From a virus, in the IMG/VR virus record IMGVR_UViG_3300010396_000037: a DNA stretch of 64,000 nt. One strand, written 5' to 3'. The notes below the pieces were generated by a model that searched no databases, had not been told where the DNA came from, and saw nothing but the letters and a program-made list of their open reading frames with translations. Shown piece by piece: positions 7,711 through 64,000 of this stretch. Each line of letters begins with the position of its first letter. Position 1 is the first letter of the stretch. The translations under genes and the position numbers were made by a program.

Positions 7711-9139
7711 ATGAAAATATACAGAGTGTTTCCTGACTATTCCTCAATCGTAACAGGCGTGTGGAATCAAATAGGAGAAGAACCTTACATCATTGACTAT
7801 CCAACTCTTTTAGAGTGGGGAGCTTCACCAAAGACCATTTCTATATTGAAAGAAATGTGTTATGTATTCGATTTGGTAGATGAAAATCCTTCAGATGCGG
7901 AATTGGATTTCATCAGCTGGTGTATAGAAGAAGCAACCAGAAGATTGAATGATGAAACGGATTACAAATTTGAGACGATATCATGAAAATAGAGATCGTT
8001 AGATTCGACAATGGCCGATATGGTGTGCGTCGTAAAAAGTGGGCGTGGTTGTTTTTGGAATTCGAGTTTGAATTCTTAAAAACTAACTGTGAATGGGACA
8101 TGTGCAGATACCCAAGTGTATCAGCAGCTTTTGATACTGCCGAGGAAGCAAAGAAAGCATTACAATCACGCATAGAACAAGAGAAGAGATTGGAACATCT
8201 TGGCAAAGATTTTGGTGAGGTGACTGATGCTTAAAGAAATTGCTACTAAAGGTTATGGATACTATCTGACCCTCAAGATATTGAAATTGCTGTTTTATCC
8301 ATTGCATCTCTTGTTGTGGATTGCATGGATGATCATTTTGTCCATGTTTTATATTTTCATTAAGATGATTATCCTTTCATTTGAAATTTGGGAATCAACA
8401 TCATCTGAATTCAAAATCATCTTTATTAATGGTAAGCATCTGAAAAATTTTAGTCGCAAATCCTACAATAGAATCTATGGTCCAGGAGCACAACCGCTGT
8501 CCCCAGTTGAGGTGCATCATGGATAAGAACAAAATTATAGCATTATTTACATTCTTGGGTTTTGTTACTCTTATATGTCTGCCCAAAATAGCATTCATAG
8601 TTTTTGCAACTCTTGCGATCATCATATGTCTTTTGGGTATCTACATGTGTATATATTTTGCAATCAAGGAATTCAATGAAGATCGTACAGTTTAAAAATG
8701 GCAAGTATGCTGTCAGGAAGGGATGGTTAGACCATAGATTCCTGCTCGCAAACAGGAATGATTTGTATTTCACGTTCGTGATGCTTCCTTCAGAAGACTC
8801 AGAAGTAACCGTGAACAGTGTAGAGGAAGCTGAAGCTGCCATTAAAAGATACTATGAAAGAGCACGTGCGCTAAGAGATAATGGTAAGCCAGTAAAAAAG
8901 ACTAAGACTTCTTCTCATGATCCATGGTGGAAAAAAAGAACAGACAGCACAGGTATAGAATGATGGCCAATCAACTTATCACAAGTCTTCAAGCAGAATA
9001 TGTAAATTTGCTTCGGGAAATTGAGAAGTTGAGGAAGGAATATGAAGTGAAGGCCGCGACGTTAGAGAGGATTGGTTTCTTGTTGAATCAAGAAGACAAG
9101 CTGCGAGCAATCAGAGAGCGTAAGCTTAACAATCATTAA
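7711..9139 (+). CDS. Run of small hypothetical genes (7711-7986, 7983-8234, 8227-8526, ~8519-8695, 8676-8963, ~8960-9139)
   Basis: Tightly overlapping start/stop codons; two begin MKI.....NG.Y.VR. Confidence 0.55.
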
Positions 9140-55851: not shown

Positions 55852-56466
55852 TCATTGAATATGTTCCAACTGTTGTGTCGAGAATGACAAAGGATAAGCG
55901 CAGGCGAATCCGATGTAATCATGATTGTCAGACAGGGAGGCTATACAAGTGATGGTTGTGATGATTTCTCCTTGTTGATTGAAAATAGCTGAACCAGAGT
56001 CCCCATAGAAACTTGGTAGTTGAAACATCATCATTACTGCGCGTGATCCTACATGTGATAGTCCTGAATACACACCAGTCCTATACAACTGATCCAAACG
56101 CCCAGGAGCGCCAGCGATAAACACTTCCTGACCCAATTGTAAAGGTTGTTGACTAATACTAGCCCAGTTCTTAAAAGTGTATCCCAAAATAACGATCACA
56201 TGATCTTTGGTATCATATGTTTTATGCTTAACGGGTACAACTTTGTCTTTGGAATCCACAGCAAGTGAAGAAGTGTTCTTGTCAACACAATGAGATGCGG
56301 TTAATATAGTATGAGGTCCAACTGCAACAGAATTACAATCACTGCCGTCAGCAAACCAGATTTGATGTGTCACAGATATCAATGAAACAGGGAAGTCTGC
56401 TCTCTGTTGAATTGAACAGCATGAACATAACAAAAGTAGCAGTATAGCTATCAACAACTTCTTCAT
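55852..56466 (-). CDS. Trypsin-like serine protease, probable lipoprotein
   Basis: ILTASHC (His), D-H (Asp), GDSGS (Ser); signal with LCSC; minus-strand late promoter at 56492-56499. Confidence 0.88.
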   Translation of the reverse strand: MKKLLIAILLLLLCSCCSIQQRADFPVSLISVTHQIWFADGSDCNSVAVGPHTILTASHCVDKNTSSLAVDSKDKVVPVKHKTYDTKDHVIVILGYTFKNWASISQQPLQLGQEVFIAGAPGRLDQLYRTGVYSGLSHVGSRAVMMMFQLPSFYGDSGSAIFNQQGEIITTITCIASLSDNHDYIGFACAYPLSFSTQQLEHIQ

Positions 56467-58663: not shown

Positions 58664-58737
58664 GGGTCTGTAGCTCAAAGGTAGAGCAGAGAGCTGTTAA
58701 CTCTCCGACCAGGGATCATTACCCTGCTGGCCCGCCA
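58664..58737 (+). tRNA. tRNA-Asn(GTT)
   Basis: GAGAG-ct GTT aa-CTCTC; GCCA. Confidence 0.87.
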
Positions 58738-60654: not shown

Positions 60655-60730
60655 GCGGGAGTCGTCCAATATCTAAGACGCCAGTCAGCTAAAGACTGGA
60701 AATGCTGGTGAAAATCCAGCCCCTGCTCCA
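60655..60730 (+). tRNA. Atypical tRNA with a 6-bp anticodon stem and central CTA (amber-suppressor-like)
   Basis: CCAGTC-ag CTA aa-GACTGG; Gly-like body, TCCA. Confidence 0.6.
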
Positions 60731-63277: not shown

Positions 63278-63351
63278 GCTCCTATAGTTAAGTGGCATAA
63301 CAGTTGCCTTGTAAGCATCTATCCTCTGTTCGATTCGGAGTGGGAGCACCA
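63278..63351 (+). tRNA. tRNA-Thr(TGT)
   Basis: GCTCCTA/TGGGAGC; ct TGT aa; CCA. Confidence 0.87.
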
Positions 63352-63356
63352 ATTTA

Positions 63357-63393
63357 TCCTCAGAGAGCCTGCTAGTGTGGGCGGTCGGCTGTT
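63357..63393 (+). tRNA. 5' half of a tRNA-Asn(GTT), interrupted after the anticodon
   Basis: TCCTCAG..GCC-tgctagtgtg-GGC-G-GTCGG-CT-GTT, then unrelated AT-rich sequence. Confidence 0.6.
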
Positions 63394-63411
63394 CAAACAC
63401 TAAATATATTC

Positions 63412-64000
63412 ATGGAATGTAAATATTGCAACAAGTCGTTTATCAATAAACAAAAACTAGCAAGTCATGAGAGCAACTCTGCTTGCAATCCTAACAAAAC
63501 GATTTACTGTGCCCACTGCAAGTTTTGCGGTAGAAATTGCTCTCATCTAAATGGCTTACGTTCTCACGAAATCACTTGTATAAACAATCCAAACAGAGTT
63601 AAGGGTAAGAGAGGCGATGGTTGGTACAAAGTAGATAAAACTGCATTTTCTAAAAAATTGAGCGAACGTTACAGAAGTCATGAAACGAACAAATTGATAA
63701 GCGCGACATGTTTAGCAAAAGCGAAATCTGGTAATTGGCATCATGGCGCCGGCAAAAGTAAAAAATACACATACAAAGGATACAAATTCGACTCTACTTG
63801 GGAAGTACAACTTGCTATTTACTGGGATTCGAAAGAAATAAATTGGATTAGAAATTCCGAAACATTTCCTTACTTCTGGAACAAAAAGAACAGATCTTAC
63901 ACTCCCGATTTTCTTTTACCAAACTCAAATACGTACATAGAAGTCAAAGGATACAAAACAGAAAGAGACATTGCAAAATGGTCTTCTTTCCCTGGTAGAC
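63412..64000 (+). mobile_element. Zinc-finger PD-(D/E)XK endonuclease (putative homing endonuclease; 3' truncated, not in the ORF track)
   Basis: Manual translation: MECKYC...SHE...C and CKFCG...SHE..C fingers, then FDSTWE...YTPDF...YIEVKGY; late promoter ACTAAATA at 63399-63406. Confidence 0.85.

Follow-up and report, generated by a model that had tools for sequence, protein, structure and literature searches.

The window analyzed here, a 64,000-nucleotide stretch of IMG/VR virus record IMGVR_UViG_3300010396_000037, ends in what we judge, with a probability of about three in four, to be a tRNA-Ile gene of a soil phage replaced by a free-standing homing-endonuclease cassette, of which the window holds the left half. 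The record comprises 67,441 bases, and 1,372 bases beyond the window end allowed the cassette to be followed to its other side; positions in this locus, L001, are obtained by subtracting 61,799 from those of the window. The cassette lies in a dense tRNA array, where almost all genes have an encoded CCA end followed by a short A/T spacer. The tract runs from a tRNA relic through a late-promoter box and a nuclease open reading frame (ORF) to a whole substitute tRNA, with the following features.

63278 to 63351, plus strand: tRNA-Thr(UGU), the intact upstream neighbor (ARAGORN; Rfam tRNA, 56.8 bits)
63352 to 63357: 6-nt spacer between the CCA of tRNA-Thr(UGU) and the relic, of the length usual in the array
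63358 to 63391, plus strand: probable tRNA-Ile(GAU) relic, nucleotides 1 to 34 with G34 as the last base (comparative match to locus L180)
63392 to 63411, plus strand: left end of the cassette, a 20-nt A/T-rich leader holding ACTAAATA at 63399 to 63406
63412 to 64000 in the window and on to 64074 beyond it (L001 1613 to 2275), plus strand: nuclease ORF of 220 amino acids
64054 to 64127 (L001 2255 to 2328), plus strand: complete "type I" tRNA-Ile(GAU) (ARAGORN; Rfam tRNA, 59.7 bits)

A sequence-only reading of the window had taken this tract for a tRNA-Asn gene interrupted at the anticodon, with a group I intron core or a matching 3' half to be sought past position 64000. Beyond that point, the ORF stops at 64074 (TAG), its last 21 nt overlapping a complete tRNA-Ile(GAU) whose sequence is unlike that of the relic, and no matching 3' half is found. 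The next 1.4 kb holds this tRNA instead of a group I core: the Rfam group I intron models gave no match in the L001 locus past the window at E values up to 10, and Rfam returned no credible family other than tRNA there. In the whole 67-kb record, sequences fitting a 3' half (acceptor complement plus NCCA) did not exceed the rate of a reversed-pattern control; the sole candidate near the array, at 56310, was rejected for want of a T arm. The sequence following G34 of the relic does not pair back to the relic strands, and direct repeats around the cassette amount to generic T-arm and CCA similarity. Since the ORF ends in a complete tRNA, with neither a 3' half nor a group I core, the tract does not encode an intron-bearing or split tRNA.

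An interrupted but functional tRNA, in which the ORF lies within a group I or other intron or the halves are joined by phage RNA repair, is therefore refuted for the 67-kb record, and we give it next to no chance overall. Group I introns with PD-(D/E)XK endonucleases do occur in tRNA anticodon loops, but here a complete, unrelated tRNA adjoins the ORF end, no Rfam intron family matches at E values up to 10, and no relic-complementary sequence with CCA rises above the control in 67 kb or carries a T arm. Splicing by the healing and ligase enzymes of the phage, which had also been proposed, is not needed, as there is no 3' half to join. The fallback offered with these ideas, an intronless insertion that kills the tRNA, was essentially right, except that the killed gene is most likely tRNA-Ile, not tRNA-Asn, and that compensation comes from the tRNA-Ile(GAU) of the cassette itself, behind the ORF, instead of from the tRNA-Asn copy at 58664.

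That a tRNA 5' piece is present was correctly seen. It begins 6 nt after the CCA of tRNA-Thr(UGU) and can be parsed into a 7-nt acceptor strand, GA at positions 8 and 9, a 4-bp D stem with an 8-nt loop, G26, a 5-nt anticodon-stem strand, and C32, T33, and G34 at 63389 to 63391. Its D loop, as had been remarked, resembles that of tRNA-Glu of the same phage (7 of 8 bases equal). When positions 8 to 34 of the tRNA-Ile(GAU) of L180 were compared with the window, 23 of 27 bases were identical at 63365, which is the sole such site; the next-best site for this 27-mer on either strand has 10 mismatches, so that the match is not a chance one. The Rfam tRNA model gave no match to the truncated stretch, a 37-nt piece with an unusual D loop whose scores are too low, and the evidence for a tRNA piece is thus comparative rather than model-based. 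Among 541 distinct tRNA 5' parts, the type II tRNA-Ile(GAU) of L180 ranks first (z 5.9). The acceptor strand of the relic matches neither the L180 tRNA-Ile nor any other tRNA.

Two readings of the destroyed gene have to be weighed. In pairwise alignment, the likeness to the L180 tRNA-Ile ends directly after CTG, that is, at G34. This stop, the L180 match, and an isotype shared with the substitute tRNA together make the relic most probably a resident type II tRNA-Ile(GAU), broken between positions 34 and 35. The end of the half had been placed at 63393, after CT-GTT; the piece is real, but its parsed end is 63391, and "GTT" is more likely G34 followed by two Ts of the insert. In the alternative, the same cassette would have destroyed a tRNA-Asn(GUU), as the earlier label implied, the nuclease having cut a near-cognate anticodon arm; with this body type, a single anticodon base separates Asn from Ile tRNAs, the relic would run to T36 or A38, and Asn decoding would be rescued by the gene at 58664. 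The letters of the relic do read CTGTT, and tRNA-Asn genes take ranks 2 and 3 of the 541, and had held ranks 1 and 2 of 315 when the library came from nuclease-bearing loci only, before L180. The body of the 58664 gene, moreover, is unlike the tRNA-Asn of the relatives G001 and L180, and this gene is the closest paralog of the cassette tRNA-Ile (73% identity, top of 190 pairs). However, over positions 8 to 31, the relic is closer to the L180 tRNA-Ile(GAU) (20/24) than to the best tRNA-Asn (17/24), and position 37 is C where Asn would have A. In L180, tRNA-Thr(UGU) sits just upstream of the Ile gene, not of the Asn gene, and across the family the relic and the substitute normally share decoding, with the break normally at positions 33 to 35. 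Judged on these comparisons, the odds of an Ile over an Asn origin would be roughly 5 to 1, and we consider the loss of a tRNA-Asn gene an unlikely, if reasoned, alternative.

The protein itself has the parts that had been read from its sequence, two zinc fingers and PD-(D/E)XK nuclease motifs. The fingers (both C-x2-C-x12-H-x3/5-C, or C2HC) lie in the N-terminal part of the 220-amino-acid ORF. E131, P165-D166-F167, and E177-V-K179 are invariant in 16 homologs, and a family profile matched T7 endonuclease I (PDB 1m0d) with an E value of 1.3e-5, placing E131, D166, E177, and K179 on its catalytic residues. The phrog_15137 "endonuclease" profile of PHROGs matches the whole protein length (E value, 1.2e-21). 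All Pfam matches (Phage_endo_I, zf-C2H2, and DUF7487) were subthreshold; with PF05367 (Phage_endo_I), the score of 24.1 bits lies below the curated cutoff of 29.1, and on these scores the nuclease is best classed as a relative of the superfamily and not as a curated PF05367 member. AlphaFold2 was confident over the two N-terminal fingers and gave pLDDT values of 93 to 97 over residues 120 to 210. Foldseek, with E values all above 0.001, assigned a probability of 0.99 to the I-Bth0305I catalytic domain (3r3p) and to Bax1, and also listed TnsA and T7 endonuclease I. The confident model of the nuclease domain shows the alpha/beta restriction-endonuclease-like (PD-(D/E)XK) fold. No GIY-YIG domain was matched in Pfam or PHROGs, and the family profile found no sequence match to I-Ssp6803I chains at E values up to 1.

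Two pairs of genomes provided us with a direct view of the locus with and without a member of this family. Among cultured Kuttervirus phages, coliphage PhaxI carries a family member, while Salmonella phages SJ3 and Det7 do not, and the flanks of PhaxI and SJ3 are about 99% identical. The tRNA-Met of SJ3 is intact; PhaxI retains only nucleotides 1 to 26, followed by a hairpin, the nuclease ORF, a different complete tRNA-Met, and a 70-nt tail. The last 10 nt of the PhaxI ORF overlap the substitute tRNA-Met, and homology to SJ3 returns at the old CCA. The second pair consists of two uncultured contigs, G001 (locus L002) and L180, a nuclease-free close relative of G001 that was found by a degenerate pattern scan; their flanks are 96.6 to 99.5% identical. 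L180 has a tRNA-Lys(UUU), 6 nt, and then the type II tRNA-Ile(GAU) (8640 to 8714), which is like the window relic. In G001, a 962-nt patch stands in for 338 nt of L180; it carries the nuclease gene and a type I tRNA-Ile(GAU), and its Lys and Ala alleles differ from those of L180. The family thus shows presence/absence polymorphism at the same locus in two pairs, and flanking markers were replaced together with the insertion: tRNA-Lys, -Ile, and -Ala in G001 and tRNA-Met in PhaxI. For the window phage itself, exact patterns of the relic and of the tRNA-Thr 3' end found no close cassette-free relative in IMG/VR, nor did a single-protein locus search and a metagenome scan with the family profile yield one among the matches listed. 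G001 differs from L180 by a further insertion of 425 nt (L002 1692 to 2144), which encodes a 150-amino-acid HNH endonuclease and ends exactly at the start of a tRNA matching the L180 tRNA-Thr(UGU).

The arrangement seen in the window recurs widely. A profile search yielded at least 328 relatives in IMG/VR viral contigs and at least 482 in metagenome contigs, none of the latter exceeding 37% identity to the window nuclease among the at least 482 matches listed. The nearest homolog of the nuclease, L002 in contig G001 (49% identity), also abuts a tRNA-Ile(GAU). Three contigs, the longest of 153,854 bp, are listed as encoding a protein identical to the window nuclease. Among the 106 distinct proteins with enough downstream sequence, a same-strand tRNA starts between -40 and +30 nt of the stop codon in 61, compared with 168 of 2,140 (8%) random positions in the same tRNA-rich loci. 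The ORF overlaps the tRNA in 49 of these 106, most commonly by 10 nt, so that the stop codon ends at tRNA position 10. Abutting tRNAs include Met(CAU) (44 cases), Ser(GCU) (8 cases), and Ile(UAU) (4 cases). On the other side of the ORF, an unannotated tRNA 5' piece was found in 32 of 96 distinct contexts and never extended past the anticodon loop; tRNA-Met relics end in ACTC (after C34) and tRNA-Ser(GCU) relics after U33 or G34. A tRNA-like score of at least 30 was reached by 23 of 51 upstream regions versus 6 of 153 random windows.

Two subgroups of the family deserve separate description. In L018, L027-L028, and L031-L035 (IMG/VR), the relic ends in CTC, as expected of a CAU-type anticodon, but UAU is the anticodon of the substitute. 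Had the old gene been a lysidine-type tRNA-Ile2, AUA could be read by either tRNA, and the swap may then remove dependence on the host lysidine synthetase. In L042, L058, L078, L080, and L045, only the last 18 to 20 nt of a tRNA-Met relic, from the end of the D arm through C34, follow the CCA of another tRNA. Here, the cassette seems to carry the relic along, perhaps as an upstream homology arm.

Considering these data, we propose a model for the spread of the cassette. The nuclease would cut nuclease-free tRNA-Ile alleles in or next to the anticodon, and during coinfection the break would be repaired from a cassette-bearing genome, a process that would carry over the promoter together with the nuclease gene and the substitute tRNA. 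The anticodon stems of the relic and of the L180 tRNA-Ile differ from those of the cassette tRNAs, and the different stem of the substitute should confer immunity to cutting. The phage would keep its Ile decoding; in our proposal, the insertion consequently costs little and requires no intron. We infer the cleavage activity, the cut site, the immunity of the substitute tRNA, and the continuing mobility of the window copy.

An entirely different role has also to be considered, in which the nuclease is no longer selfish but is kept for a phage function such as recombination, junction resolution, or the amplification or exchange of tRNA genes. Break-driven amplification or exchange would help against host defenses that cleave tRNAs, and SegB indeed drives tRNA-Tyr amplification and defeats the Septu defense (PMC13096335). 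The ORF is intact with all catalytic residues present, its fold is shared with a junction resolvase, and the phage invests heavily in its tRNA island, all of which would suit such a function. On the other hand, presence/absence polymorphism combined with allele replacement in two pairs is the signature of homing, a zinc-finger DNA-binding module and a constant location at tRNA genes suggest that cutting is directed by site rather than by structure, and the window locus shows no tandem amplification. We consequently think it quite improbable that a phage function now maintains the nuclease, and we retain the homing cassette as the preferred reading.

How the nuclease gene is expressed can be partly read from its leader. 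The late-promoter-like box that had been noticed soon after the tRNA piece is present: the last A of the ACTAAATA box lies five bases before the ATG (63412), and the same box (NNTAAATA boxes) occurs 25 to 60 nt upstream of the genes for the head scaffold (3598) and major head protein (4780) and of other plus-strand ORFs, a placement before structural genes that fits T4-type late promoters. From this position, the transcript is expected to begin at the ATG or beside it. No Shine-Dalgarno (SD) sequence was found in the 20-nt leader, and a regulatory hairpin was not detected in the window copy, whose folding was not better than that of shuffled sequences (z +0.75; second run, z -0.29). Across the family, 58 of 92 contexts have TAAATA no more than 67 nt from the start, at bimodal spacing. 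The class with 4 to 7 nt comprises 15 contexts (mode, 5) with SD-like motifs in none; in the other class, mostly at 13 to 28 nt, 42 contexts have a spacing of at least 8 nt, and 25 of them have an SD-like motif. Relatives with the longer spacing have strong hairpins (z -4.3 to -6.7) in which the relic end pairs with the SD sequence and the box lies in the loop. The control is the one described for I-TevI, I-TevII, I-TevIII, segB, and mobE, which restricts translation to late times (PMC2988022).

The window copy falls into the short-spacing class, and the recurrence of that class in 15 contexts, with the 5-nt distance from box to ATG and no SD sequence, supports the earlier suggestion of a late leaderless mRNA. 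Since read-through transcripts of the tRNA operon would lack a ribosome-binding site, no message other than this late transcript would be translatable.

Of the systems described, SegB is functionally closest. Free-standing within the tRNA cluster of T-even phages, this endonuclease cuts a tRNA gene and coconverts flanking tRNA markers (PMC2330249); its association with phage tRNAs is widespread (PMC13096335). With SegB of T4 and T6, the window cassette shares a free-standing nuclease gene within the tRNA array of a T4-like phage, a tRNA-gene target, spread together with neighboring tRNA alleles at the loss of recipient markers, a late promoter of its own, and a hairpin, found in many members of the present family, that sequesters the ribosome-binding site. 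However, SegB is a GIY-YIG enzyme, whereas the window enzyme is of the T7-endonuclease-I-type PD-(D/E)XK class with zinc fingers; the junction lies in the T-psi-C arm for SegB but in the anticodon for the window cassette; and the window ORF runs into a whole substitute tRNA, with a 5' relic often left in the family. The nuclease would thus work like SegB, while by its sequence it is not to be counted as a member of the SegB family.

I-Ssp6803I reportedly recognizes the anticodon region of a tRNA gene. The window nuclease is like it in belonging to the PD-(D/E)XK superfamily, and most members of the present family lie at tRNA-Met(CAU) genes; the difference is that the window cassette has no intron, and that function is kept by a spare tRNA instead of RNA splicing. 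I-Ssp6803I is described as being encoded by a group I intron within the tRNA-fMet gene of Synechocystis (Bonocora and Shub 2001, as cited in PMC3984707). T7 endonuclease I (PF05367; 1m0d, 1fzr, and 2pfj) is the best sequence match of the nuclease domain, its E20, D55, E65, and K67 corresponding to E131, D166, E177, and K179 of the window protein, but it is a structure-specific junction resolvase that lacks zinc fingers and is not mobile. I-Bth0305I (EDxHD; 3r3p) is, with Bax1, one of the two closest solved folds (TM score of 0.49 on the target) and is a phage homing enzyme, as the window nuclease is taken to be; it differs in its EDxHD motif, in being intron encoded in recA, and in sharing only 18% identity. 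A literature search of incomplete coverage returned SegB, F-CphI, and general reviews, and in these we found no account of the present family or of adjoining tRNA relics. Nor did we find a description of the gene-replacement design, a relic plus a carried spare, although it may possibly have been described elsewhere.

Several other elements of the array are unusual in their own right. Of the 20 called tRNAs, the tRNA-Asn(GUU) at 58664 to 58737, the only tRNA-Asn called by ARAGORN in the 67-kb record, and the cassette tRNA-Ile (L001 2255 to 2328) form the most similar pair; with 73% overall identity, they are identical at positions 3 to 26 and differ in anticodon base 35 and in G73 versus A73. 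The tRNA-Asn of G001 (L002 4160 to 4235) and L180 is of a "type II" that is quite different from that of the window. The 58664 gene may have been replaced, or may derive from an Ile-type gene through a shift of its anticodon; on a bolder and less likely reading, its similarity suggests a cassette-borne tRNA recruited to a new amino acid.

On comparison with L001 2745 to 2870, the stretch directly after the cassette tRNA-Ile (L001 2329 to 2398; 64128 to 64197) holds a copy of a promoter-like sequence together with the first 11 and last 10 nt (with CCA) of an odd tRNA-like gene with a CAU anticodon, found 400 nt further on. The stretch resembles a version of this gene from which the whole interior was deleted, leaving a mini-helix that ends in CCA. 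It is followed by a 139-nt element (L001 2407 to 2545; 64206 to 64344) with a 7-bp acceptor stem, a T arm, CCA, and about 60 extra nucleotides in the middle, which was called by neither ARAGORN nor Rfam. L001 2874 to 2996 is a 123-nt tRNA-like gene of 29.8 bits, just at the Rfam tRNA threshold; its anticodon-arm region is followed by an insert of about 50 nt. Within the window, a tRNA-like gene at 60655 to 60730, located after two tRNA-Gly genes, has a 6-bp anticodon stem, the loop AG-CTA-AA, and thus a CUA (amber-reading) anticodon with G33. Finally, a 61-amino-acid ORF in the tRNA array (L001 2560 to 2742) has CxxC...CxxxC zinc-ribbon motifs and weak matches only (phrog_14913 HNH endonuclease; E value, 0.037).

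Homing endonucleases have been thought to invade genes safely by way of self-splicing introns, inteins, or intergenic sites. The present family would add a third route, in which a tRNA gene is broken and a spare is supplied, and this family is large and includes members in cultured Kuttervirus and T4-like phages. Such a route would explain the orphan tRNA halves and "pseudo-tRNAs" of phage tRNA arrays, the truncated tRNAs called beside "endonuclease" genes, and the sharply different tRNA alleles between near-identical phages. For the annotation of the window, it means that 63358 to 63391 should be entered as a tRNA-Ile pseudogene fragment rather than as a tRNA-Asn that is split or holds an intron. 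There is, in addition, a small chance that the cassette is more than a parasite. The 5' relic may then be of use as well, supplying upstream homology when the cassette next homes and, in relatives, covering the ribosome-binding site. Each homing event would install a resequenced tRNA body and anticodon stem and thereby drive rapid allele turnover. If this is true, the turnover of tRNA alleles could let phages escape host defenses that cleave anticodons or tRNAs.
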